A stretch of 32,000 bases of DNA from an uncultured archaeon (GCA_964373795.1 CAYJVY010000010.1:17710-49709), one strand, 5' to 3'. Counted from the first letter of the stretch, positions 2,439 to 22,709 are shown. The notes: generated from the sequence alone by a model not told the origin. Program-made: numbers and translations.

Positions 2439-3197
2439 TTATACAGTAGATAGTTTTGAGTTGAGTTTGTTTAGCTTGTTTTTTGCAGTATTTAAATGCT
2501 TTTCAGTTTTTTGTTTTCCTATTGCAAAATTGTCAGCGTTTTTTTCTTCTTGACTAAATAATGATTTCATTTCAGAGAACGCAAATATTGGGGAAATTTT
2601 TGTTAAAAAAAATCCCAAAGACTTTATTTTAGGGGTTTTTGTTTTTATGTGGTATACTTCATGCAATATCACTGATTCTAGTTCTTTTCTTGATAAAAGC
2701 TCTAACAAACCAACAGAAAAAAATATCTTTGCATGAATTGAAGTACTAGAAAACGCTTTTGGAGATATGTCATCTATTAAGAAGATTTTTGGCATTTTCA
2801 TGCCTTCAATTCTTGTTATCTCTTTTATTTTTTCATACAAATCCCCTGAAACGACTTCAGTTGCTTTTAAAGAATACTGGTAAACAAGCGGGGCGACTAT
2901 ATAGCCTAAAATAATTGCCCCCAAAATTGAGACAGGTATTGCTGTCAAATAAGCTGAGGCCATGCATGCAAGAAATGAACCACACTTTAATGAGAACAAA
3001 AAGTAAAGAACTGGGAACACTATTGCGAAAATGTGTGCGTAAATCCAAAAGGTTTTATTAGCTGTTTCTTTTTTCCTGATTTTCCAAAAGGACACTCCTA
3101 AAAGTAGAAGAGATGTTCCAATTGTGAAAATCCCATCAATACTTGAAATGAATGCTGGAATGCATACAGTTGCCATACAAGTGAGATCGGTAAGCAT
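2439..3197 (-). CDS. Membrane zinc metallopeptidase, BlaR1/M56-like signal transducer without an extracellular sensor domain
   Basis: 252 aa. Several N-terminal TM helices, then an HExxH motif (VILHEVYHIK). Located 3 nt downstream of a BlaI-family repressor gene, the canonical BlaI-BlaR1 order. Confidence 0.7.
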   Translation of the reverse strand: MLTDLTCMATVCIPAFISSIDGIFTIGTSLLLLGVSFWKIRKKETANKTFWIYAHIFAIVFPVLYFLFSLKCGSFLACMASAYLTAIPVSILGAIILGYIVAPLVYQYSLKATEVVSGDLYEKIKEITRIEGMKMPKIFLIDDISPKAFSSTSIHAKIFFSVGLLELLSRKELESVILHEVYHIKTKTPKIKSLGFFLTKISPIFAFSEMKSLFSQEEKNADNFAIGKQKTEKHLNTAKNKLNKLNSKLSTV

Positions 3198-3200
3198 TTT

Positions 3201-3575
3201 TTAATCACTTTTTTCTCCAAATCTTTCATTAAAATATGCAATAGCTGTTGAACCAAATTTTTGAATCAATTTGTTGACACTTTTTTCTAAAACCCTTTTT
3301 TCAAATTTTTCTGGACTGATTTTCAATACGTAAGCATATCTATAGCCACCTCTGCAGTTTTCGATCTCTCTTTCAGTGAGCCCTTTTTTATGCAATCTAT
3401 CCAAAAACACTGATACAGTAGTAGGGGAAACTATTTTTTTGTTCCTTTTAAGGGCTTGATGAATATCTTTAGAAATTGATTTACCTTTTTTTCCAAGTAT
3501 ATATAAAATAGCTAACTCCAAATCACTTAAAGCGTCTTTTAATTCATTCTTTATTATGAAACTCTCTCTAATCAT
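3201..3575 (-). CDS. BlaI/MecI/CopY-family winged-helix repressor
   Basis: 124 aa. Motifs: LSDLELAILYILGKKGKSISKDIHQAL ... VSPTTVSVFLDRLHKKGL ... YRYAYVL. No C-terminal CxCxxxxCxC, so it is not a classical CopY metal site. Confidence 0.8.
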   Translation of the reverse strand: MIRESFIIKNELKDALSDLELAILYILGKKGKSISKDIHQALKRNKKIVSPTTVSVFLDRLHKKGLTEREIENCRGGYRYAYVLKISPEKFEKRVLEKSVNKLIQKFGSTAIAYFNERFGEKSD

Positions 3576-5168: not shown

Positions 5169-5399
5169 ATGGCTTTGAAAACAGTATTGCTAGGCGCCTT
5201 GCTAGTAGTAATGGTTATAGTAGGATTGTTGCAAACAGTTCAAATACTTAACCTTAGCACTGCATTGAATTCAGGTGTTGGCTTGGTTACAGCAAAACCT
5301 GCTTCAATTAGTGTGGCTGGTGCAACAGCAAACAGTATAAAATCTACTGGTTCTGCAACTAGTTTGGATAACCTGCCTGGCATGGTTGGCGGATGTTGA
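5169..5399 (+). CDS. Small single-pass membrane protein ending in PGMVGGC, hypothetical
   Basis: AAGGAGGG at 5153-5160. 76 aa: an N-terminal TM helix (LLGALLVVMVIVGLL), a Ser/Ala/Thr/Gly-rich linker, and a terminal LPGMVGGC. Its stop codon overlaps the next gene start (ATGTTGA at 5393-5399). Confidence 0.6.
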   Translation: MALKTVLLGALLVVMVIVGLLQTVQILNLSTALNSGVGLVTAKPASISVAGATANSIKSTGSATSLDNLPGMVGGC

Positions 5400-6805
5400 A
5401 AATTTTTCGGGAAAACACAATGCAGAAGAATTTACTTATTAGTGGCGCATTAATAGCCTTGCTTATAATTGTTTTGTTTAACTCTTTGCAACTTACAGCT
5501 TTGGCTTCTCTAGCCAATGAAAAGACTGCAATAGCAAAAGAAAATTCGAGGCCTGGAAAAATTCAGTTAATAGAGTTGATTGTGCCATGCAGTGATTGCA
5601 TAGGCATTGATTCATTATTAGTTGATTTAAAAAAGCAAAACCTTGAAGTAGTTTCTGAAAAAAGGCTTGCCTCTAATTTGCCAGAGGCACAAAATTTAAT
5701 AAAAGAATTTGGTTTAACCAGGCTTCCAGCACTAATTGTTTTTGGTGAAACAACCAAGCAAAATCAGGTTAAAAGTTTTTTTGAAAAAAATGGTTTTAAA
5801 TTGAATGATTTAAATCAAGCGGTTTTTGAAACAAAAAAAGTGCCTTATTTTGATTTGAAAAATAATTCTGTTAGAGGAAGAGTATCAGTGGTTTCTTTGA
5901 CTGCAAAAGATTGCAGTAATTGTAGCTCTTTTGCAACGCTATTACCCTTGCTGAGAAACCGCGGAATAGTTTTTGATGAAGAAAAATTCTTGGAATTTAA
6001 TTCAAGTGAAGGAAAAGACTTTGTTCAAAAACATGGCTTGCAGAAAGTTCCAGCAATTTTTTTGTCAGAGAACATTCAAGAATACCCTGAAGTTTTTAAT
6101 GCATTAATTAATCAGCTTGGTTTCAAGCAAGGAAAAGGATATATTTTTCGTGAACCGCTTAGCGCGCCCTTTGTTGATGCTTTAAGTGGTGAAACAAAAG
6201 GATTAGTTAAAGCTATTTTTTTGGATGACTCTTCTTGCAATGATTGCTATGATGTGAATATGCATAAACAGATTTTTGACAGGTTTAAATTATTTTTAAA
6301 TGAAGAAGAAACAGTGGAAGTTTCTAGCGAGAAAGGGCAACAATTGATTAGTGATTACAATATTAGCAGAATTCCAACTGTGTTGCTTTCACCAGAAGCA
6401 AAAGAGTATCAAGAACTTGTGAATGTTTGGAGAGCTGTTGGAACAATTGAAGAGAATGATTGGTTTGTTTTTAGAGAGCCTAGTGCGTTATCTGGAGTTT
6501 ATATTGATTTGAATTTGAATTTAATTGTTAATCCAATACTTGTTCTTGGAGCAGAGTTTGAATTTCAGCCAAGCACAATTTCAGTTAAAAAAGGACAACT
6601 TGTTAAAATTACCTTTGTAAATGTTGGGCAAGCAGAGCATGATTTTGTAATTAATGAATTAAATATTAAAACAAAATTATTGAAACCTCAGGAAAGTGAA
6701 ACAATTGAATTCATTGCAGATAAAACCGGAGAGTTTTCTTTTTATTGTTCAGTGGAAGGCCATAAAGAACAGGGAATGAAAGGAACAATCATTATTTCGA
6801 AATAA
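5393..6805 (+). CDS. Membrane-anchored fusion of three thioredoxin-like CxxC modules and a C-terminal type-1 cupredoxin domain
   Basis: 470 aa with an N-terminal TM helix. Three modules each have a CxxC (CSDC, CSNC, CNDC) followed about 45-55 aa later by a cis-Pro-type strand (RLPALIVF, KVPAIFLS, RIPTVLLS). The C-terminus FVNVGQAEHDF ... FYCSVEGHKEQGMKG supplies the His/Cys/His/Met copper ligands. Alternative start at ATG 5420. Confidence 0.8.
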   Translation: MLKIFRENTMQKNLLISGALIALLIIVLFNSLQLTALASLANEKTAIAKENSRPGKIQLIELIVPCSDCIGIDSLLVDLKKQNLEVVSEKRLASNLPEAQNLIKEFGLTRLPALIVFGETTKQNQVKSFFEKNGFKLNDLNQAVFETKKVPYFDLKNNSVRGRVSVVSLTAKDCSNCSSFATLLPLLRNRGIVFDEEKFLEFNSSEGKDFVQKHGLQKVPAIFLSENIQEYPEVFNALINQLGFKQGKGYIFREPLSAPFVDALSGETKGLVKAIFLDDSSCNDCYDVNMHKQIFDRFKLFLNEEETVEVSSEKGQQLISDYNISRIPTVLLSPEAKEYQELVNVWRAVGTIEENDWFVFREPSALSGVYIDLNLNLIVNPILVLGAEFEFQPSTISVKKGQLVKITFVNVGQAEHDFVINELNIKTKLLKPQESETIEFIADKTGEFSFYCSVEGHKEQGMKGTIIISK

Positions 6806-8625: not shown

Positions 8626-9189
8626 GTGGTACAATTGGATGAATTTAAATGTGAAGTTTGTGAAAGAATTTTTAAATATGAAGATGGTTTGGAATTGCAT
8701 AAACAAGCAAAACACTCAAAACCAGAAAAAAAAGAACCGTTAATTAAAATTTCAAGTGGACAAAAAAAGAAATTTATAAAAACTGCAATAGCTTTAGTTG
8801 TTTTAATTGCTGTAATTGGTTTTGTTTATTATATTATTACCATTCCGAAGGTGGTATTGCCACCAATTACTATACAAGGACATATTGAACAAAAGCCTTC
8901 AAGTCATATTTTAAAAGAACCAATGGAATTAAGAGTGCAAAAGCATATGTTAGAACATGCAGATGGAACTGGGCCTCCAGGAATAATAATAAATTATAAT
9001 TGTGAAGATTTTAACTGTGAACCGGATTTAATTTTAAATCTTGAAAAATTTGCAAAAAAGTATCCAGTAAATGTATATGTTGCGCCTTTTAATGGAATGA
9101 CTGAAAAAATAGTGTTAACAAAATTTCAAAAACTGCAAAAATTAGATAATTATGATGAAAAATTAATTGAAAATTTCATAAAAAATTAA
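8626..9189 (+). CDS. C2H2 zinc finger - TM helix - DUF3105-like extracytoplasmic domain protein
   Basis: 187 aa. The start is uncertain: GTG 8626 lies inside AAGGTGG, and TTG 8635 has better spacing. FKCEVCERIFKYEDGLELHKQAKH fits C-x2-C-x12-H-x4-H. TM helix AIALVVLIAVIGFVYYII. Then HMLEHADGTGPPGIIINYNC ... VYVAPFNGMTEKIVLT ... LIENFI, which matches my memory of DUF3105. Confidence 0.65.
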   Translation: MVQLDEFKCEVCERIFKYEDGLELHKQAKHSKPEKKEPLIKISSGQKKKFIKTAIALVVLIAVIGFVYYIITIPKVVLPPITIQGHIEQKPSSHILKEPMELRVQKHMLEHADGTGPPGIIINYNCEDFNCEPDLILNLEKFAKKYPVNVYVAPFNGMTEKIVLTKFQKLQKLDNYDEKLIENFIKN

Positions 9190-9327
9190 TAACTGTTATA
9201 ATCCAGCAAAGAAAATAATTAATTTAGAAATTATATTTTAAGAGATACTAACAAAATCAGTTTGTTTTTGAATAATGTTTTTTCCTAAAATTTTTATCTT
9301 TAATAAATTATATTGGAGTTTTTATAA

Positions 9328-9753
9328 ATGGAAATTTTTCAATCTATTATCAAAAATTTTAGGATCCCTGGATTTTTGGCAAAATTTGTAATTTATAGTA
9401 TAGGGCTTTTTATAATATTGGGAATTCCCACAGCTCTTTTTCCTAATCCAATAATTCCATATACTAGAATGATTCCTTCAAATATTTTAGATTATGTTTT
9501 TTTATTCACTACAAGTGTTTTAGCAGGTTTTTACTTTGCATTGCCTAAAAGCAATGCATGCAATCCAAATAAAAGCGCTTTCGGTGGAGGAATTTTTGGA
9601 TTCCTTGCTTTTGCTTGTCCGACATGTATTCAGTTATTAGTGTTACTTTTTGGTTATGCGTTTTTGTTCAATATTTTAAATCCTTTAAGGCCGATTATTG
9701 GATTACTTTCAATTGGATTTTTGTTATTCGCAATTAGCAAAAAAATTCTTTAA
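9328..9753 (+). CDS. Four-helix membrane protein with intramembrane CPTC motif, hypothetical
   Basis: TTGGAG lies upstream of the ATG. 141 aa. FGGGIFGFLAFACPTCIQLLVLLFG then LNPLRPIIGLLSIGFLLFAI. Confidence 0.6.
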   Translation: MEIFQSIIKNFRIPGFLAKFVIYSIGLFIILGIPTALFPNPIIPYTRMIPSNILDYVFLFTTSVLAGFYFALPKSNACNPNKSAFGGGIFGFLAFACPTCIQLLVLLFGYAFLFNILNPLRPIIGLLSIGFLLFAISKKIL

Positions 9754-12828: not shown

Positions 12829-13245
12829 TTAATGTTTTTTGAATGTTTTGGCACAGTATTTACAACAAAAATTTGTTTTCCTTCCCTTAATTTTTTTTGT
12901 ATAGCGACTTTCAAAAACTTTACAACCGCAATGGACACAAACAGTCAATCTTGGAGAAATACTTAATTCAATTAACTCTCCAAATCTCGACAGAATTTTT
13001 TTAATAAACTTTTCTCCTTCTAAAGTTAATGAATAAACTTTTTTCTCTCTTTGCTTTTTTTCTTTTGAAACAATTAATTTATTTTTTTCAAGCAATGCAA
13101 GAAAAGGATATATTTGCCCCGGGGAAACTTTTTTCTCTGATTTTTCTGAAACTTTTTTAATTAATTCATATCCGTGCATAGATTTTGAGTTTAACAGCAT
13201 TAGAGCATAAAATTTAGTTAAATTGTCTATTTTTATTTTATCCAT
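12829..13245 (-). CDS. PadR-family winged-helix regulator fused to a C-terminal TRASH metal-binding domain
   Basis: 138 aa. PadR core: ALMLLNSKSMHGYELIKKV ... SPGQIYPFLALLEKNKLI ... KVYSLTLEGEKF. C-terminus: CVHCGC-x19-FCCKYCAKTF (TRASH: Cys pair ... C-x3-C). Divergent from copA. Confidence 0.8.
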   Translation of the reverse strand: MDKIKIDNLTKFYALMLLNSKSMHGYELIKKVSEKSEKKVSPGQIYPFLALLEKNKLIVSKEKKQREKKVYSLTLEGEKFIKKILSRFGELIELSISPRLTVCVHCGCKVFESRYTKKIKGRKTNFCCKYCAKTFKKH

Positions 13246-13300: not shown

Positions 13301-13590
13301 TTATGATATTATAAGTGTCACTTAAAAAATTAATGTGTATATTTAGAGGAAGTAATCCTATTGATTGTCATTAAAAAAAATAAAGTTGAAAAATTTAAAG
13401 TGCATTCTCTGGGCGGGCCAATTTAGAGGCGTTTAATTGACAAATGAATTAAATATAAAAGCATTGGATTGTGCAGTAATTGCTGCAGGATTAATTGCGT
13501 GGGTTTACAATTTTTCTTTGAAAAAATTTAGTTAGTTTTGAATTCATTAAATTTTTAAACAACAAAAGTACTGTATTAATGAGGTTTAAT

Positions 13591-16248
13591 ATGGCAAAAG
13601 ATCCAAATTGTGGAATGACTGTGGATGAAAAAAAAGCAAAGTTTGTTTCCAATAAAGGTGGAAAGAAAACTTATTTTTGTTCATTAAATTGTTTGAAGAC
13701 TTTCGAATCCAAACATGGTTCGAAAGCTTCTTCCGCAAAAACTACAAAAATGCCAGAAAAAATAGCGCTTAAAAATTCAAAAATTGAAGGCACTAATTCG
13801 AAACTTATTTCAATTACTGGAATGCATTGTGCTTCTTGTTCTCAAACAATTGAAAAAGCATTAACAAAACTGCCAGGAGTTGTTTCTGCTAATGTTAATT
13901 TTGCTTCTTCTAAAGCATTAGTGAAATACGATGCAAGTAAAGTTGGGGAAAAAGAATTTTTTTCCGCAGTTGAAAAATCAGGATATGGGGTAGTTAAAGA
14001 AGAATTTGGTGGAGAAGGAAAAGAGATTTTAGCAAAGATTGATATAATTGGAATGAGTTCACAACATTGTGTTGGAGTTGTAGAACAAACCCTGCATAAA
14101 TTACATGGATTAGACAATATAAAAGTTAATCTTGGAACACAAACAGCAGAATTCCTTTATAATAAAGAGAAAATTTCTTTGCAGGAAATAATTTCTGCAA
14201 TAAAGAATTCTGGATATGAGGCAAGAATTGCTTTGCCTGAAGATAAGGAAAAAATCGCTCGCGAAAAAGAAATTCAGGAATACAAATTCAAATTCGTGGT
14301 TTCTTTTTTGCTTTCTGCTCCTTTGATGATTTTCGCAATAGGCCCGGCAGTAGGAATTGTTTTGCCTGAATTTATTAAGCAAAACTTTTTAGCAATTCAA
14401 TTTCTTTTAGCAACTCCTGTAATTCTTATAGGTTACAAATTTTTCACAAACGGTTTCAGAGCTCTTTTCATTAACAGAATTCCAAACATGGATTCTTTGG
14501 TTGCATTAGGAGTAGGAGCCGCTTATGTTTGGAGTATTTTTTCTTCTCTGCAAATTCTTTCTGAAATTCCAGGATTTGGAGTGGACTCATTATATTATGA
14601 AATATCTGCATTTTTGTTGACATTCATCATTTTAGGAAAATATTTGGAAGCAGTTGCAAAAGGCAAAACTTCTGAAGCAATCAAAAAACTTTTAGGCTTG
14701 AAGCCAAAAACTGCTTTTGTTGAACGCGCAGGAAAAGAATTGGAAATTCAAATTGACGAGGTTCTAATAGGAGATATTGTAATAGTAAAACCTGGACAAA
14801 AAATTCCAGTTGATGGAACAGTTGTTTCTGGAGACAGTTATGTTGATGAATCAATGATTTCAGGAGAACCATTGCCTGTGCACAAAATTGTTGGCAGTAA
14901 AGTAATTGGTGCAACAATTAACAAACAAGGTTTTTTCAAATTTCGTGCAGAAAAAGTTGGCAGTGAAACAATGTTGGCTCACATTATTAGAATGGTTGAA
15001 GAAGCTCAAGGCTCTAAAGCTCCAATTCAAGAATTTGCTGACAGAATTTCTTCATGGTTTGTTCCAGTAGTTATTGCTTTAGCAATTATTTCTTCTCTTG
15101 CATGGCTTTTAGTTGGCCAGCCTTTTTTGTTTGTTTTACAAATATTTATTACTGTTTTAATTATTGCTTGTCCTTGTGCTTTAGGTTTAGCTACTCCTAC
15201 TGCTGTAATGGTTGGCACTGGTTTAGGAGCTCAAAATGGAATTTTATTCAAATCAGCTGCTTCTTTGCAGAAAGCCCATGAAGTTCAAACAATTGTTTTT
15301 GATAAGACTGGCACGCTTACAAAAGGCAAGCCAGAAGTAACAAATATTGTTTCAGTGAATGGAAAAAAAGATTTAGATGTTTTAAGTTTTGCAGCTATTG
15401 CTGAAAAAAATTCAGAGCATCCATTAGCTGAAGCAATTTTAAACAAAGCTAATTCTTTAAAGTTAAAAGTTGTTTCTCCAAAAAATTTTGAAGCAGTTTC
15501 AGGTAAAGGAGTTAATGCTTTTTTTAAGGGAACAAAAATTCTTGTAGGAAATAAAAAATTTTTTTTAGAGCAAAAAATTTCTTTTAAAGAACTTGAAGAA
15601 AAAATTTTTGCGCTGGAATTAGAAGCAAAAACAGTTGTATTAATTGCAGTTAATGGAAAGCTTTTAGGTGCAATAGCTATTGCTGATTCTTTAAAGGATT
15701 TCTCTAAAGAAGCTGTTCAAGAACTTCATAATTTAGGAAAAGAGATTGTAATGATTACTGGAGACAATAAGACTACTGCTGAAGCAATTGCTAAACAAGT
15801 AGGCATTGATTTTGTTTTAGCAGAGGTTTTACCCGAACAGAAAGCTCAAAAAGTTAAAGAACTTCAGTCTTCGGGAAAAAAGGTTGCATTTGTTGGAGAC
15901 GGAATTAACGATGCCCCTGCATTAGCTCAATCAGATGTTGGAATTGCAATTGGTTCTGGAACTGATATTGCAATTGAAGCAGGAGAAATTGTTTTAATTA
16001 AAAATGATTTAAGAGATGTTGTTACAGCAATTGATTTATCTGCTTACACTATTAGAAAGATTAAGCAAAACTTTTTTTGGGCATTTATTTACAATGTTGC
16101 TGGTCTTCCATTAGCTGCAGGAATTTTATATCCTTTAATTGGATGGCTTTTAAATCCAGTTATTGCTGGAATTGCAATGGCTTTTTCCTCTGTATCAGTT
16201 GTATCCAATACCTTGCTAATGAAGGGCTTTAAGCCTAGAATAAAGTGA
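13591..16248 (+). CDS. copA: Cu(I)-translocating P1B-type ATPase
   Basis: GAGG at 13581-13584 favours ATG 13591 over ATG 13579. N-terminal TRASH/YHS-like CGM-x20-FCSLNC. HMA 1 has GMHCASC; HMA 2 is degenerate (GMSSQHC). Also [44 protein letters not shown]. Confidence 0.95.
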
Positions 16249-17711: not shown

Positions 17712-20700
17712 TTATTTGCATTGGAAATTGTCATATGTTTCATATTTTGGAGGGTAAGAGGTTATTATACTTCCATCGCTTCCAACAATTGTTGCCATGA
17801 ATTTTGCTCCAATTTTTAGTAAATAGCACTCTTTTGGAGGTTTTCCGTCAATTGTTTTGCCTAGCAATTTTTTTCCAGGATTTTTAATTGACTCAAATAT
17901 TTTAGACTGAATTATTTCGTTGTCATTTAGCCCAATTTTTGCAAAATCTCCACTATCAACATGTTTTGTTTTTATGTGTTGCCAGCCCTTGTATTGGTTT
18001 CCTTCTTCTAGCCATTTTATTTGTTTGCCTGAGTCTTCTGCTACATTAATTGTTTTTTTCAAGTCGCCTCCTTTTTCTAGAACTGTTTCCATGTTTTTTA
18101 CTGGAACATTTTTTGTGTTCTTTAATCTATTTATTGCTTCGACTCCATCGTCTCCGTAATGCTTTAACAAATTCGGCAACGCATCAATTGTTTCTTTTTT
18201 TGCTCCTCTTTCGAATAGTATTCCTAGATTTTTTAATTCCTTTAACTGTGTTTTGTTAAACGTTCTAGTAATAGTACTTTTCACTCCTTTTGTTACTACT
18301 TCAAAAGTGATTTTTGCTTTTTTTGCGATTTTAACTAGATTTTCAACAGCATTTGCTATCTTGCTTAATTTGTACCATTTTTTTGCAGAATCTAAGACTC
18401 TGACTGTTTTTACACTAGCGATTCCAAAATCTACTAAAGGGCCATCAGCTGGAACTATTATTGCTATAACATTTCCAACACTTAAAAGTGTATCCACTAA
18501 TCCCCATATAGTCCATTCTCCTCTACACCAATCTCCAAAAGCAAATTCGCAAGCAATATTGAATCCAAGATCCGCAAAAGTCTTATCTGCGTTATCCTCT
18601 AATTCCAGTATTTCAACATCAATTGTTGATACAGTTCCATCTGGCAACAAATTATTTTCACTGCCATTAAGCACAGCAAAAGATGTTCCGCCAAATTGTT
18701 TGCTTAAATATTGTGTTCCATCCATTACTCCGTCTCCGTCAGAGTCTTTTTTTATAGGATTTGTTCGTGTAACAGTTGTTTCCTCTAAATCTGTTAAACC
18801 ATCGTTATCTGTGTCTTCTTTGAATGCATTTGTTCCATAAACTTTTAATTCATGATAGTCATCTAAACCATCATCATCTGAATCTTTTTTGTTTGGATCT
18901 GATCTTAATGCATAATAGTTTCCGCCGATTGGTAGAATTGTTACTTCTCCCATTTCAAATCCATCGCTTACTCCGTCTCCATCAGAATCATATTTTTGTG
19001 GATCTGTGTAAATGTATTTGAATGTTCCTGTTCGCATTCCACTTGATTCTTCATTATTTGTTAATCCATCTCCATCTGAATCTGGGGCTATTAAAATGCT
19101 TTTACAAGCAGAATTATCGAATTCGCTTGATTCTGCAATTACGTTGTCTGGATCTAGTACTAGGCAAACTCTTTCAACTCCGTATTCTGCATACCAAGTT
19201 ATTTGTGTTAGCCTCATGCTGTTGCCTGCAATGCTTGAAATTGTTGTTGAAGAAATCTCTGTTCCAGTAGAGTTATTTCTTCTAAATGAAACTTTTACAT
19301 TGTTTGCTGTTTCAGTGTCGTTGTTTCTTATATTTGCTTTTATTTTAATTGCATTGCCAGATAAGTATGTGTTTTGGAAATCAATTATTCCATTCCATGT
19401 TTTTCCATATGGATTGGAATTTGACAAAAAATAACTGCTAAAATGAGTTGTTTTTCCCCAGACGTATTTTTCTGTGGAGTTTATTCCTTGAATTTCTAAT
19501 GGTTTGAAAACCATTTTTTCTTCGTCTAAATAATAAAGCCTTAATTCGTTTGATTGTAAGCCTTTTAATTCTTCTTCTGTGTAATAGAATCTCATTTCTG
19601 CTTCATTGAATGAGTTATTACCTTTAATGTTAAATTTTGCTCCTTTGATTAAAGTAGTTGTATCAACTGTTGAAGGCAAATCAGTTGGATCTTCAACTAT
19701 CGAGATTTTTTTCCTCAAGTCTCCTTTTCCTGTGACAATTAGTTTTGTGTCTTGGCTTTGTGTTGGAATTTCTTGAATAAATATTTCTTGCCCATCTGGA
19801 ATTCCATCATTATCTGAATCATTTGTTAAAATATTTGTGCCAAAAGAGATTTCTGCTTCGTCATTTAATCCGTCTCCATCTGAATCTTTTGAAATTGGAT
19901 TTGAATGAAGTTCATTTATTTCTTTGTAGTCTGTTATTCCATCAAAATCAGAATCGTTTGTGTCAGGATTTGTTCCAAAATTAAATTCCTGTAATGCTGT
20001 CAAACCATCTCCATCCAAATCAATTAATGCATCACTTGAAATTGAATCTGTTGAAGTTTGATTTGGATTTGTTCCTTGAATAAATGCTTCAAAATAATCA
20101 TTTAATCCATCTCCATCCGAGTCAGCATTAAATGGATTTGTTTTTCCTTTGAATTCCTCTAAATTATTTAATTTGTCGCCATCAAAGTCTTCATCTGCAT
20201 CACTTACGCCATCAAAATCAGAGTCTTTTAGTAATGGGTTTGTAAGTAAAACATTTTTTTCATAGTCTTCTGGAAGAGTGTCCCCATCAAGCAAAAATGT
20301 TTTTTCCCATGTAGATTCATTTCCCGCAATATCTCTTGCAATAATTTTGTATTGGTTTTCTCCAAGGATAAACTTTGAATTGAATACAAACAAACCATTT
20401 TCATCAACATTTAAAGTTAAATTGTTTAACGTGACATAAATTCCTGGCTCTGTTTCTCCTATTATCAAGTACTCTGATTCCTCTATTGTTGTATCTGTAA
20501 TAGAGTCATTAATTGAAAGCATTGGAGGGGTATTGTCAATGATTATTTGTGTTGATTTTTCCGCTGTATTTCCTGCCTTGTCTTCTGCTGTTATTTTTAA
20601 TTCGTGTGAACCGTCTTCAAATTCTGTTGTGTTTAAATTGAATGGTAGTATTGAGTTTAAAAAATTTGAATCTAAAAATACTTGGAGTTGTTTCAAGTTT

Positions 20701-22709
20701 TTTTCTATTATGTTTGCGTTCACGGAAACAATTTGCCTTAAATGGCTTCCAGTGCTTGGATTAATGTTTTCAATTTTTGGAGGAGTGTTGTCAAATTCTA
20801 CTTGAGTTGTTTTTTCGTTTTCGTTCCCTGCTTTGTCGTTTGCATAATATTTTATTTCATGCAATCCGTCAGCGTACTTTGTAGAGTCAACTTGGTAAGG
20901 CAAATGATTTGATATCTGCAGACCATCTATGAAGAGTTTTGTTAAATCTAAGTACAAGTCGTAAGTGCTTCCAAGTACATCAAATACCCCTCGCAGAAAT
21001 GCTCCTGTCAAAGGATAAGTAATTTCAATGCTTGGAGGAGTTTTGTCTATTACGAAACTCACTTGCTTTGTTGCAGTGTTTCCTGCTTTATCTGTTGAAG
21101 AAACTAAAAGCAAGTGCTCGAATTCTGTTGAAATAATTTCTCCCAAAACATATGCTTGGTTGTTGAGTAAAAAAGTATTCGTGTCAGGGTTTAGTTCTAC
21201 TACATTAATTAATGGAAGCACGTTTGAATTGTAGAATTTTCCTTCTTCTATTCCTGTAATAAATATTTTTGGAAGAGTGTTGTCGACTGTTACTTGAATT
21301 GTTGTTGTGTTAGTGTTTCCTGCTAGGTCTTTTGCAAATAAAAGAATTTCATGTAATCCATCTGATGCTTCATTTAAAGTGTTCCAGTTAAAGGAATTAT
21401 TTTGAGTTTTTGCTTGGCCATCTATTCTCCATTCAAGAAAATTAAAGTATTTATCTGTTGCAGTGCCTGAAACACTAATGTTTTGTCTCAAGAAAGAATT
21501 GTGCAGAGGAGAAATTATTTTTACTTCTGGAGGAGTTTTATCTATTGCAAATTTGTATTCTAGAATCGATTCGTTTCCTGCTAAGTCTTTTGCTGTTGCG
21601 CGTAAAATATATTCGTTTTCATTAGAGACCTTGGATCCTGAAACAAATTCTGCAGAATTCAAAGTTGTTTGTGTTTCACTTAAATGCTTGTCTATGATTA
21701 AAATTTCAGGATTCAAATCATAATTGTAGTAAGAATTGTTTTCTACTCCTAAAAATTCAATTTTTGGAGGAGTAATGTCTAAAACTATTTCAATGCTTTC
21801 ACTTTTCCCTGTATTGCCGAATCTGTCAGTTGAAAAAACAGTAACTAAATTATTTCCATCTACTAATGGAACAGTTCCAGAATAAACCCCGCTAATCAAA
21901 GGGAACTCGTAATTTGAGTCATTCACTTGAACTACAACTGAATTAATTGTCTGCAATTGTACATCCCAAACAGTTCCAGAAACTGTTTGCATTTCTTGGT
22001 TTGTGTAAATGTTTGTTTGCGGAGATGAAATAAAAACTAAAGGAATTGTGAATTCATCTAGTAAGCTTAGGCCAGCAAATCCTTCAATCCAGGAGTTCTT
22101 GAAGTGTTCTATTGAATTAGGCGAGTTACCTATGTTCAACTGGTGTTGTGCCTTGTCATAGCTTTCTTTTGCTTTCTGTAAATGGTTTGAAGCCTGCAGG
22201 AAAACGTTTTCATCTTCTATTTCTGGTAGAACCTTTTCAATTACTTCAATCAAGTTTTTGGAAATATTTTGATCTGCTTGTACAAGCCTACTTATTGCAA
22301 ACAATAGTTTGTTGTTATCCAGATTAGAGCTCTCCCTATTGTAAAGAGTTCTTATGAAATTTCCTGCTTTTTTTTCGAAAACAAAAACATTTGCATCCAA
22401 AATCAAGTCTTGCGTAATCCAGAATTCTGGTTTAAGGCTTGCCTCGACATTTGAATCTGCTTGCAAAAGCTTGTCAAGATCGTCTTCAACTGCTTCTGGA
22501 ATCAGTTCCTGTAAAAAACTTCTTGCTTGATTTTTCAACTCAAAAGGAGTCAAGTTTTCTTGTGTAAAAACCAATTCTGTGTCATTCAAATTATTCTGTG
22601 CATTCCCGGCTGCAAAAGCGCTGGAGAAGAATACAGTTATGAATAGCAAAACACAAATGCTTTGCCAAAACTTTTTTTCCACACGCATAAATATCATCTT
22701 TCTATCCAA
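17712..22709 (-). CDS. Giant secreted/anchored surface protein: Ig-like repeat array, TSP3-like Ca-binding repeats, CARDB-like domain, pre-toxin-like segment and short variable C-terminal tip (polymorphic-toxin-like)
   Basis: 1665 aa with an N-terminal hydrophobic signal (ICVLLFITVFFSSAFA). At least six repeats of about 95 aa, of the form (I/V)DKTPP ... DGLHE ... (A/T)KD(L/K)AGN ... DNTPP. Two blocks of D-x-D-x-DG-x-x-D repeats (DSDGDGLND, DSDFDGITD, DTDNDGLTD). ANIRNNDTETANNVKVSF looks CARDB-like. Hydrophobic WGLVDTLLSVGNVIAIIVPADGPLVDFG. The last 96 aa start at GNQYKGWQHIKTKH. Confidence 0.85.
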   Translation of the reverse strand: MDRKMIFMRVEKKFWQSICVLLFITVFFSSAFAAGNAQNNLNDTELVFTQENLTPFELKNQARSFLQELIPEAVEDDLDKLLQADSNVEASLKPEFWITQDLILDANVFVFEKKAGNFIRTLYNRESSNLDNNKLLFAISRLVQADQNISKNLIEVIEKVLPEIEDENVFLQASNHLQKAKESYDKAQHQLNIGNSPNSIEHFKNSWIEGFAGLSLLDEFTIPLVFISSPQTNIYTNQEMQTVSGTVWDVQLQTINSVVVQVNDSNYEFPLISGVYSGTVPLVDGNNLVTVFSTDRFGNTGKSESIEIVLDITPPKIEFLGVENNSYYNYDLNPEILIIDKHLSETQTTLNSAEFVSGSKVSNENEYILRATAKDLAGNESILEYKFAIDKTPPEVKIISPLHNSFLRQNISVSGTATDKYFNFLEWRIDGQAKTQNNSFNWNTLNEASDGLHEILLFAKDLAGNTNTTTIQVTVDNTLPKIFITGIEEGKFYNSNVLPLINVVELNPDTNTFLLNNQAYVLGEIISTEFEHLLLVSSTDKAGNTATKQVSFVIDKTPPSIEITYPLTGAFLRGVFDVLGSTYDLYLDLTKLFIDGLQISNHLPYQVDSTKYADGLHEIKYYANDKAGNENEKTTQVEFDNTPPKIENINPSTGSHLRQIVSVNANIIEKNLKQLQVFLDSNFLNSILPFNLNTTEFEDGSHELKITAEDKAGNTAEKSTQIIIDNTPPMLSINDSITDTTIEESEYLIIGETEPGIYVTLNNLTLNVDENGLFVFNSKFILGENQYKIIARDIAGNESTWEKTFLLDGDTLPEDYEKNVLLTNPLLKDSDFDGVSDADEDFDGDKLNNLEEFKGKTNPFNADSDGDGLNDYFEAFIQGTNPNQTSTDSISSDALIDLDGDGLTALQEFNFGTNPDTNDSDFDGITDYKEINELHSNPISKDSDGDGLNDEAEISFGTNILTNDSDNDGIPDGQEIFIQEIPTQSQDTKLIVTGKGDLRKKISIVEDPTDLPSTVDTTTLIKGAKFNIKGNNSFNEAEMRFYYTEEELKGLQSNELRLYYLDEEKMVFKPLEIQGINSTEKYVWGKTTHFSSYFLSNSNPYGKTWNGIIDFQNTYLSGNAIKIKANIRNNDTETANNVKVSFRRNNSTGTEISSTTISSIAGNSMRLTQITWYAEYGVERVCLVLDPDNVIAESSEFDNSACKSILIAPDSDGDGLTNNEESSGMRTGTFKYIYTDPQKYDSDGDGVSDGFEMGEVTILPIGGNYYALRSDPNKKDSDDDGLDDYHELKVYGTNAFKEDTDNDGLTDLEETTVTRTNPIKKDSDGDGVMDGTQYLSKQFGGTSFAVLNGSENNLLPDGTVSTIDVEILELEDNADKTFADLGFNIACEFAFGDWCRGEWTIWGLVDTLLSVGNVIAIIVPADGPLVDFGIASVKTVRVLDSAKKWYKLSKIANAVENLVKIAKKAKITFEVVTKGVKSTITRTFNKTQLKELKNLGILFERGAKKETIDALPNLLKHYGDDGVEAINRLKNTKNVPVKNMETVLEKGGDLKKTINVAEDSGKQIKWLEEGNQYKGWQHIKTKHVDSGDFAKIGLNDNEIIQSKIFESIKNPGKKLLGKTIDGKPPKECYLLKIGAKFMATIVGSDGSIITSYPPKYETYDNFQCK
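17999..18069. repeat. 71-nt near-identical direct repeat, copy B (partner 16807-16877)
   Basis: Lies inside the giant gene and encodes GDLKKTINVAEDSGKQIKWLEEG, immediately before the 96-aa C-terminal tip. Confidence 0.9.

Follow-up and report, generated by a model that had tools for sequence, protein, structure and literature searches.

What would a chain of thioredoxin folds joined to a blue copper protein do on the outside of an archaeal cell, and from where would it draw its electrons? The question is raised by a gene in the genome assembly of an uncultured archaeon (GCA_964373795.1, CAYJVY010000010.1:17710-49709); the window analysed is the whole of this 32,000 nt stretch, and positions are counted from its first letter. 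As an initial annotation made from the sequence alone had claimed, the gene encodes a membrane-anchored fusion of three CxxC-containing thioredoxin-fold (Trx) modules and a complete type-1 (blue) copper cupredoxin domain; sequence profiles, a structure model and conservation agree on this architecture. The host is a DPANN archaeon: the window has a G+C content of 31 % and encodes GatE, an archaeal enzyme, and close homologues of the target protein carry the labels Aenigmarchaeota or DPANN. The target unites in one chain a functional association whose members are separate genes elsewhere. Our reading of its function, tentative and a little short of probable, is that cytoplasmic reducing power passes along the Trx chain and is delivered as single electrons to the copper centre, in a process tied to copper handling.

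The three CxxC motifs (CSDC, CSNC and CNDC) and the three cis-Pro-type strands (P112, P220 and P328 in LPA, VPA and IPT, respectively) were found where the initial annotation had placed them (Table 1). Among the 150 best family representatives, which share ~25–40 % identity with the target protein, every CxxC is at least 96 % conserved and every cis-Pro 97–100 %. In module 1, C66/C69 are present in 148–149 of 150 representatives and P112 in all 150; in module 2, C174/C177 are present in 144 and P220 in 146; in module 3, C282/C285 are present in 149 and P328 in 150. The modules, of ~108 aa each, are clear internal repeats of one another; when 15 modules taken from seven proteins are aligned, nothing is invariant but the two cysteines and the proline. 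Conservation of CxxC and cis-Pro, together with the repeat alignment, puts the motif pattern far beyond chance, and because both are kept in each module all three look catalytically competent.

Pfam scans of single modules were discarded as proof of the Trx fold, being too weak: module 2 reached 16.3 bits, and modules 1 and 3, scanned individually, gave no match. Over the full-length protein PF00085 scores 30 bits (cut-off 23.5), only as the sum over several stretches, the best of them aa 163–231, and stretches of TIGR01068 and TIGR02187 match the module 3 region (aa 275–344). A profile search, one of the checks that the initial annotation had proposed, bore out the cupredoxin, which lies above its cut-offs, and a Trx profile pooled from the repeats, while the modules taken singly stayed below the Pfam cut-off. 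The pooled-module profile, used in place of the single scans, matches Pyrococcus protein disulfide oxidoreductase (PDO; 1j08/1a8l, E 2e-7) with CxxC and cis-Pro in register, and its remaining matches are all thioredoxin, glutaredoxin or DsbA. In Foldseek, the multi-Trx part of the AlphaFold2 model (mean predicted local distance difference test score, pLDDT, 87; predicted template modelling score, pTM, 0.70) matches PDI (abb'xa') and ERdj5. The Trx fold is thus established by the pooled profile, the model and its fold matches, without relying on Pfam. The CxxC at the N-terminus of helix 1, the cis-Pro ~45 residues on and the fold itself are those of the Trx-fold superfamily, and a role in thiol-disulfide oxidoreduction is predicted for the modules.

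The assignment of the C-terminal domain as a cupredoxin is unambiguous. PF13473 (Cupredoxin_1) scores 51.8 bits on the full-length protein and 56.2 on the domain alone (cut-off 27), PF00127 (Copper-bind) scores 28.8 and 34.8 bits, respectively (cut-off 21.2), and the H plus C/H/M ligand set of a type-1 site is present. The ligands had been proposed as H416 (in EHDF) and C452-x4-H457-x4-M462, which is confirmed by the best sequence match among solved structures, the N-terminal type-1 copper (T1Cu) domain of Hyphomicrobium denitrificans nitrite reductase (2dv6, E 1e-11). The ligand loop YYCSIAGHRQAGM aligns to FYCSVEGHKEQGM of 2dv6 with identical C-x4-H-x4-M spacing, and all four residues align with the T1Cu ligands. 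The modelled domain superposes on the copper-bound Cupredoxin_1 of B. anthracis (4hcf) with a TM-score of 0.90 and a root-mean-square deviation of 1.4 Å. The H/C/H/M ligands are kept in every type-1 (T1)-fused homologue examined, at 34–39 % overall identity, and the domain in the target would be expected to bind copper. Its nearest relatives are stand-alone cupredoxins of ~150 aa (49–55 % identity); the gene contexts of the closest of these were uninformative. The same cupredoxin subtype (36–38 % identity) recurs in a protein of 303 aa, joined to a Cu,Zn-superoxide dismutase domain, and in one of 680 aa, joined to a PQQ/BamB-like β-propeller (P0009 and P0010), and thus behaves as a portable module on varied extracytoplasmic redox proteins.

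Public gene calls start the protein at M10 (ATG 5420), which gives 461 aa (P0001, an identical protein in public data); this start is likely, since it agrees with the short N-termini of homologues. Basic residues precede the membrane anchor (aa 9–42), which argues for an N-in topology with the remainder of the protein outside the cell. Cupredoxins are typically located outside the cell, and the Trx and cupredoxin domains of the target are probably extracytoplasmic. The protein contains exactly seven cysteines, the three CxxC pairs and the copper ligand. The same count is seen in the three-module fused homologues, with one additional N-terminal cysteine in P0015.

The target belongs to a family of which copper is not the common property. 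An exhaustive profile search of 1.84 billion representatives returned 785 clusters (at 50 % identity) with E <1e-30; the impression of a tiny family, left by a word-indexed homologue search with 10 matches, was overturned by this result. Most members are 360–400 aa long and match only the anchor and the three Trx modules, variants with two or four modules exist, and the family spans DPANN archaea and some bacteria. A cupredoxin stands at the target's positions in 12 of the 150 representatives, always with H/C/H/M; 11 of the 12 are members of the Trx family (11 of 149 with a C-terminal T1 domain), the other being an unrelated poly-plastocyanin (P0109). The resulting frequency of 8 % among the top representatives is inflated, as the search profile contained the cupredoxin; for a fused T1 cupredoxin, the count of 3 among 70 species-representative loci is more reliable. 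The architecture of the target is a rare, minority form of a large unnamed family. No description of a Trx–cupredoxin fusion, of the partner motifs considered below or of such a thiol/copper system in DPANN archaea or candidate phyla radiation (CPR) bacteria was found in the literature searched, and the fusion is indeed as unusual as had been suggested.

Other members of the family carry related fusions. T1 fusions occur with two or three Trx modules. In P0031 three Trx modules are joined to a CuA-type cupredoxin with the loop C-x3-C-x3-H-x2-M. P0076, a bacterial protein of 693 aa, unites a DsbD_TM/CcdA domain (PF02683, 37.4 bits), two Trx modules and a T1 cupredoxin in a single chain. The distinct T1 and CuA loops indicate at least two independent fusions; the fused forms are scattered in a crude neighbour-joining tree, which is too poorly resolved for fusion events to be counted.

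The copper-less triple-Trx family, the Cys-rich partners encoded in the same operon and the link to import of reductant by a CcdA/DsbD-type route were all absent from the initial annotation. The operon was followed in 80 loci (L019–L098), all DPANN, from species-representative genomes and anchored on the 481 aa membrane protein encoded ahead of the target; co-occurrence counts in these loci were computed without phylogenetic correction. The Trx-repeat gene lies immediately downstream of this partner in 70 of the 80. Gene order is kept in Aenigmarchaeota (L001), Woesearchaeota (L015/L016), Pacearchaeota (L017/L018) and other DPANN (L014), and also in a bacterial locus (L011, with sigma-70 and DnaG) and in one of uncertain origin (L006). 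In the window, successive genes of the operon are separated by 37, −7, 34, 4, −14, 131 and 138 nt.

The 481 aa partner consists of a cytoplasmic Cys/His finger, a polytopic membrane domain and an ectodomain whose Cys-rich head possibly binds metal, and its cysteine columns are invariant in an alignment of homologues. These number more than 180, all labelled ‘hypothetical’ and none with a Pfam domain, and the family extends at ~50 % identity across Woese-, Aenigm-, Nano- and Pacearchaeota. Searches for the partner in the PDB gave no sequence-profile match, and its model (pLDDT 71; best Foldseek E 0.55) was uninformative. A VKOR/DsbB-like identity for the membrane domain was considered but set aside: the order of the cysteines differs, as judged by eye, and neither sequence nor fold supports it. 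The partner in the window and its closest homologue bear an additional N-terminal CxxC...C...H finger, similar to the YHS/TRASH-like finger present in CopA and PadR, both encoded nearby.

The proteins encoded around the Trx gene are likewise rich in potential metal or thiol ligands. Of the 80 loci, 76 contain an open reading frame (ORF) that ends in a VGGC tail, and the MVGGC-type tail occurs also in L001, L005, L006, L011, L014 and L015. Proteins of this kind are ~60–100 aa long and comprise an N-terminal transmembrane helix, an Ala/Ser/Gly-rich linker and a tail of the form ...(N)LPx(M/Q)VGGC at the C-terminus, their sole cysteine being the final residue; the same tail terminates some CxYCCG-domain proteins (L006 1473–2291 and L015 12890–13564). 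From its layout, the VGGC protein looks like a tethered single-thiol ‘arm’. The 239 aa, 168 aa and 187 aa proteins are paralogous or related ectoproteins with Cys pairs and HxH motifs (GSAHIHA, HIHATG and IHTHEGNGTIHIE), and some of their relatives place a cytoplasmic C2H2 finger ahead of the transmembrane helix. They are probably metal-binding. The 239 aa protein has no Pfam or NCBIfam match and, apart from the regulators, the protease and DUF3105 on the 187 aa gene, neither database provides a name for any of the operon neighbours. The 141 aa protein with a transmembrane CPTC is a paralogue of the membrane domain of the partner.

The direction in which electrons would move through such an operon is addressed by its association with CcdA. 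CcdA/DsbD_TM exports reducing, not oxidising, equivalents. These are conveyed outward from cytoplasmic thioredoxin (PMC3322552). The association is a property of relatives and not of the window, in which no CcdA homologue was found: CcdA is fused to Trx modules in P0076, its gene directly follows the Trx gene in L014, and among loci with a short, single-helix partner 10 of 15 have it within 6 kb, vs 3 of 50 among those with a polytopic CPxC partner (Fisher p = 3.7e-6, without correction for shared ancestry). This complementarity implies that the 481 aa protein of the window may itself be a transmembrane thiol conduit that substitutes for CcdA, and it suggests the polytopic CPxC domain as a candidate new family of transmembrane thiol-electron conduits. 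A DsbB homologue was not found in the 80 loci, a single query having been used. Taken together, the fusion in P0076, the adjacency in L014, the complementarity of CcdA and CPxC and the absence of a DsbB homologue point to a reductive, DsbD/Scs-like pathway.

The same proteins could be wired in the opposite sense, as a catalyst of oxidative folding with DsbA/PDI-like modules, in which blue copper would be the electron sink replacing DsbB or VKOR and quinone in a host without a respiratory chain. The tandem architecture is PDI-like, transfer from thiol to T1Cu would be thermodynamically downhill on established redox potentials, and the lack of a DsbB homologue in the loci suits this arrangement too; additionally, one stand-alone cupredoxin relative lies within 4 kb of a DsbB gene on a CPR-like contig. 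However, the domain that is fused or adjacent in relatives, CcdA/DsbD_TM, is an exporter of reducing equivalents, and more than 90 % of the family lacks the cupredoxin and hence would lack the oxidant. The active site of DsbA is CPHC, and the middle residues of the CxxC motifs in the 150 representatives are unlike it in being biased towards acidic ones, chiefly CxDC and CxEC. Moreover, a lone T1Cu has no obvious onward acceptor. We regard oxidative folding as distinctly unlikely, and re-oxidation of thiols, one of three functions that had been proposed for the protein, is disfavoured in particular by the link to CcdA.

A connection between Trx modules and copper centres recurs in several forms: as T1 fusions, as a CuA-type fusion, as a stand-alone CuA-type cupredoxin encoded four genes downstream in the same operon (L015, 11284–11676) and as a CuA-type cupredoxin gene that shares 14 nt with the end of the Trx gene (L078). 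T1 and CuA are both electron-transfer centres. In the window, a CopA-type Cu(I) ATPase and a PadR regulator with a Cys-rich finger (Table 1) place the operon in a copper setting. Among the 80 loci, a fused T1 cupredoxin is found in 3, a stand-alone cupredoxin in 11, a CopA homologue in 10 and DUF411 in 4. DUF411/CopG genes adjoin paralogous parts of the system in L015 and L017; in the former these are CEYCCG and MVGGC genes. CopG is DUF411 (PMC12341060); it has a Trx-like fold and a Cu4 cluster, and a role in converting Cu(I) and Cu(II) into one another has been proposed for it (PMC7558416).

Several small proteins of these loci deserve description in their own right. CuA-type cupredoxins of small size with the loop C-x3-C-x3-H-x2-M are encoded in L015, L024, L070, L072 and L078, and form the C-terminus of P0031, in DPANN genomes without obvious haem-copper oxidases. 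A second small type, YCxTC...G.FG..HP, is present in L001 (4569–5024), L026, L034, L066 and L087. Both may be counterparts of the short DPANN proteins reported as ‘nosZ-like’ or cupredoxin (PMC10936187). In L001 a Met-rich protein with MMxxMM runs (9183–9710) is encoded between the partner and VGGC genes, and Met-rich hits were obtained in 21 of the 80 loci; periplasmic proteins that bind Cu(I)/Ag(I) typically have such a composition.

The Cys pairs of the small cupredoxins raise the possibility that the Trx chain is a maturation factor tethered to its client, in which TlpA/Sco-like modules would keep the copper-site cysteines of a cupredoxin reduced for metallation. There is a precedent in TlpA, which reduces the cysteines of CoxB and ScoI prior to CuA assembly (PMC7558416). 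The stand-alone cupredoxins near the operon do carry Cys pairs in the copper loop, either CuA-type or YCxTC...H, and the overlapping gene of L078 and the fusion in P0031 both pair the Trx protein with a CuA-type domain. In the target and 10 other representatives, however, the fused domain is of T1 type with a single cysteine, and so offers no disulfide to be reduced; most operons have no cupredoxin nearby, and three active modules seem too many for a single client. Maturation is therefore an unlikely function of the fusion. For loading of copper onto partners by the T1 site, which the initial annotation had also proposed, no direct support was found.

A reductive chain ending in copper reduction accommodates these observations as follows. 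Cytoplasmic reducing equivalents would cross the membrane by way of the 481 aa protein, through its transmembrane CPVC and CTAC motifs and then its CDYCCG...CGCAH head, a task that CcdA would take over in relatives. The incoming equivalents would hold the three CxxC modules in the dithiol state, with the Trx chain at the service of partner proteins that are Cys-rich or Cys-tailed and probably bind copper. In the fused variant the blue-copper centre at the end of the chain would in addition receive single electrons from it and would relay them to an external oxidant, most plausibly Cu(II), so that copper is handled alongside the nearby CopA. We infer the direction of electron flow and the final acceptor, as well as dithiol–copper coupling and a purpose in copper detoxification. 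Of the three functions put forward at the outset, reduction of Cu(II) fits best with reductive wiring, and the initial interpretation as a whole is partly supported.

Several points weigh against this account. Dithiols donate two electrons whereas T1Cu accepts only one, and transfer between them would call for a thiyl or mixed intermediate. No CcdA homologue is encoded in the window, and the conduit role given to the 481 aa protein leans on complementarity statistics uncorrected for phylogeny, while its fold matches nothing. About 80 % of the operons have no cupredoxin within 10 kb, so that the core function can do without copper redox chemistry and the copper theme could be secondary. The count of Met-rich proteins is possibly inflated by composition bias. 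Finally, AhpC, superoxide dismutase and thioredoxin-reductase-like genes lie near the operon in L001 and L011, and these neighbours suit a general oxidative-stress role equally well.

Such neighbours lead to a further alternative, that there is no redox coupling at all and that the cupredoxin, for example as a CopI-like module that binds or sequesters copper or as an unrelated electron carrier, is an independent add-on that merely shares an anchor with a disulfide reductase or isomerase of the oxidative-stress response. The rarity and patchiness of the fusion, the scatter of fused forms in the tree and weak matches to CopI, a plastocyanin-like copper-stress protein (PMC7558416), speak for it. 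The CopI models, however, score far below their cut-offs (NF051440, 29.8 vs 280 bits; NF047895, 11.6 vs 200). In addition, fusion has taken place with both T1 and CuA domains, stand-alone cupredoxins are encoded in the same operon, and the ligand set is strictly kept despite the low overall identity of the fused homologues. We regard an uncoupled add-on as very unlikely.

Compared with known systems, the wiring most resembles that of DsbD/CcdA with DsbC or TlpA, and of ScsB with ScsC, in which a membrane conduit likewise feeds extracytoplasmic Trx-fold proteins with CxxC motifs; in the case of DsbD/CcdA the conduit itself is fused to, or encoded next to, relatives of the target. ScsC is maintained in the reduced form by ScsB, and in this form it takes up Cu(I) for transfer to CueP (PMC11634996); the Scs system has been linked to copper tolerance (PMC3322552). 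Scs is the closest functional precedent. Where DsbD/Scs systems have one DsbA/DsbG-like domain, the target has an anchored chain of three tandem active modules; in place of CcdA the window has an unrelated polytopic CPxC protein with its CDYCCG...CGCAH head; a T1 copper domain is covalently attached; and the hosts are archaea or CPR. The target does not belong with ScsC, DsbA or DsbC, as its ~108 aa modules lack, in the model, a helical insertion between β-3 and the cis-Pro, and the best matches of the modules are PDO, glutaredoxin and thioredoxin, not DsbA.

PDO of Pyrococcus and Aquifex shares the tandem Trx units with CxxC and is the best profile match of the pooled module. However, PDO has two units and is cytoplasmic, whereas the target has three, is membrane-anchored and is predicted to lie outside; the PDO equivalog TIGR02187 gives 26.2 bits over three stretches vs a cut-off of 185. 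PDI and ERdj5 are the best fold matches of the multi-Trx part, but the b and b' domains of PDI are inactive, while CxxC and cis-Pro are kept in all three modules of the target. Neither PDO nor PDI/ERdj5 has a copper domain or a membrane anchor of the target's type. The T1 domains of 2dv6 and 4hcf have the same fold as that of the target, and 2dv6, with which the H...C-x4-H-x4-M ligand loop is shared, is likewise a case of a T1 domain built into a redox enzyme as an electron-transfer module. The target differs in that its T1 domain is fused to a dithiol/disulfide chain instead of to a copper or haem enzyme. A Trx-like fold, copper binding by a Cys-rich site and Cu(I)/Cu(II) interconversion also come together in CopG, but within a single domain with CxCC and a Cu4 cluster, whereas the target has ordinary CxxC motifs and carries its copper in a separate cupredoxin. 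Both domains of the target come from known families and its wiring resembles DsbD/Scs; it is a new combination of known kinds.

Table 1. Coordinates and diagnostic features of the target gene, its operon and related genes. Positions refer to the window unless a locus is named.
Feature	Coordinates (nt)	Strand	Details
Trx ×3 + type-1 cupredoxin ectoprotein gene	5393..6805	+	Intact ORF, 470 aa from ATG 5393
N-terminal transmembrane signal-anchor, ~aa 9–42	5417..5518	+	Hydropathy segment; model helix 2–52
Trx-fold module 1, aa 54–162	5552..5878	+	CSDC C66–C69, 5588–5599; cis-Pro P112, 5726–5728
Trx-fold module 2, aa 163–271	5879..6205	+	CSNC C174–C177, 5912–5923; cis-Pro P220, 6050–6052
Trx-fold module 3, aa 272–380	6206..6532	+	CNDC C282–C285, 6236–6247; cis-Pro P328, 6374–6376
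Type-1 (blue) copper cupredoxin, aa 381–470	6533..6802	+	H416, 6638–6640; C452, 6746–6748; H457, 6761–6763; M462, 6776–6778
Membrane partner, 481 aa	3686..5131	+	Transmembrane CPVC C169–C172 and CTAC C223–C226; ectodomain CDYCCGSP...CGCAH
Small N-anchored protein, 76 aa	5169..5399	+	Ala/Ser-rich linker; C-terminus ...LDNLPGMVGGC; sole Cys is the last residue
His/Cys-rich ectoprotein, 239 aa	6840..7559	+	DGKCDACGM, GSAHIHA, HIHATG; homologues in L001, L014, L015; 58/80 loci
Second His-rich ectoprotein, 168 aa	7564..8070	+	IHTHEGNGTIHIE; distant paralogue of the 239 aa gene; 47/80 loci
Membrane protein, 145 aa	8057..8494	+	QVCHNVC in transmembrane helix; homologues in L001, L015; 41/80 loci
C2H2 finger + transmembrane + DUF3105-like ectodomain protein, 187 aa	8626..9189	+	PF11303, 28.5 bits vs 25; 19/80 loci
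Small membrane protein, 141 aa	9328..9753	+	Transmembrane CPTC; matches hidden Markov model of partner at E 3e-9; 37/80 loci
BlaI/MecI/CopY-family (Penicillinase_R) repressor	3201..3575	-	PF03965, 43.5 bits; divergent from operon
BlaR1-like M48/M56 membrane metalloprotease	2439..3197	-	HEVYH; PF01435, PF05569; HtpX-like in NCBIfam
PadR regulator with C-terminal Cys-rich finger	12829..13245	-	CVHCGC...FCCKYCAK; PF03551, 60.8 bits
CopA-type P1B Cu(I) ATPase	13579..16248	+	Pfam; YHS, two HMA, CPC, DKTGT, MxxSS
VGGC protein, L001	9756-9977		
VGGC protein, L005	1500-1676		
VGGC protein, L006	2316-2600		
VGGC protein, L011	4423-4719		
VGGC protein, L014	7757-7978		
VGGC proteins, L015	8258-8467, 13521-13820, 13774-14019		

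Regulatory genes flank the operon on both sides. A BlaI-family repressor is found in the same place in L001, L011, L014 and L017, and the pair of BlaI and M48 genes lies beside the operon in 34 of the 80 loci. The BlaR1-like protease has Cys-rich transmembrane helices and no penicillin-binding sensor domain; it is presumably the signal-transducing partner of the repressor, and the two may constitute a thiol- or metal-sensing proteolytic switch. Copper sensing of the CopY type by the repressor was rejected, as it has no C-terminal CxC motif. Farther downstream, the PadR regulator and the adjacent CopA may form a copper-responsive pair with an unusual type of regulator; the PadR finger appears TRASH/YHS-like by eye only, and a similar PadR adjoins a gene for two Trx modules and a cupredoxin in L005 (2826–3239). 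At the left end of the window an HxlR gene (1806–2198), an ArsR/SmtB metalloregulator with BigR/TsoR-like matches (622–939, + strand) and a DsrE/YedF-like sulfurtransferase-type ORF (803–1264, + strand), which overlaps the latter regulator, make up a cluster of thiol/metal-stress regulators. A very large ORF (17712–22709, − strand, 1665 aa) is followed by ORFs of 414 aa and 219 aa, for which no Pfam matches were found.

Genomes are tiny in DPANN archaea and CPR bacteria, and conventional respiratory chains are missing. The target gene marks a very widespread, unannotated DPANN operon as a thiol-redox system. Its rare fusions act as Rosetta stones, with CcdA at the N-terminal end and blue-copper or CuA-type domains at the C-terminal end, and suggest points of electron entry and possible exit. 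It is possible, although we consider it doubtful, that the operon is a previously unrecognised envelope redox system, common throughout DPANN and shared with some CPR-like bacteria, whose fused variant provides a thiol-powered, quinone- and cytochrome-free outlet by which electrons reach a one-electron acceptor outside the cell, for example Cu(II) or some other oxidant. Such an outlet would allow organisms that are believed to have no electron-transport chains to discharge electrons to the exterior. The parts of such a system may be the CPxC conduit interchangeable with CcdA, the ‘swinging-arm’ ...LPxMVGGC proteins and the triple-Trx relay. If true, the dithiol-to-copper relay would be a new means of linking, outside the cell, the two-electron chemistry of thiols with the one-electron chemistry of metals, and testable roles would be available for unannotated families: the CDYCCG...CGCAH protein, the ...MVGGC tail proteins and the His-rich ectoproteins.

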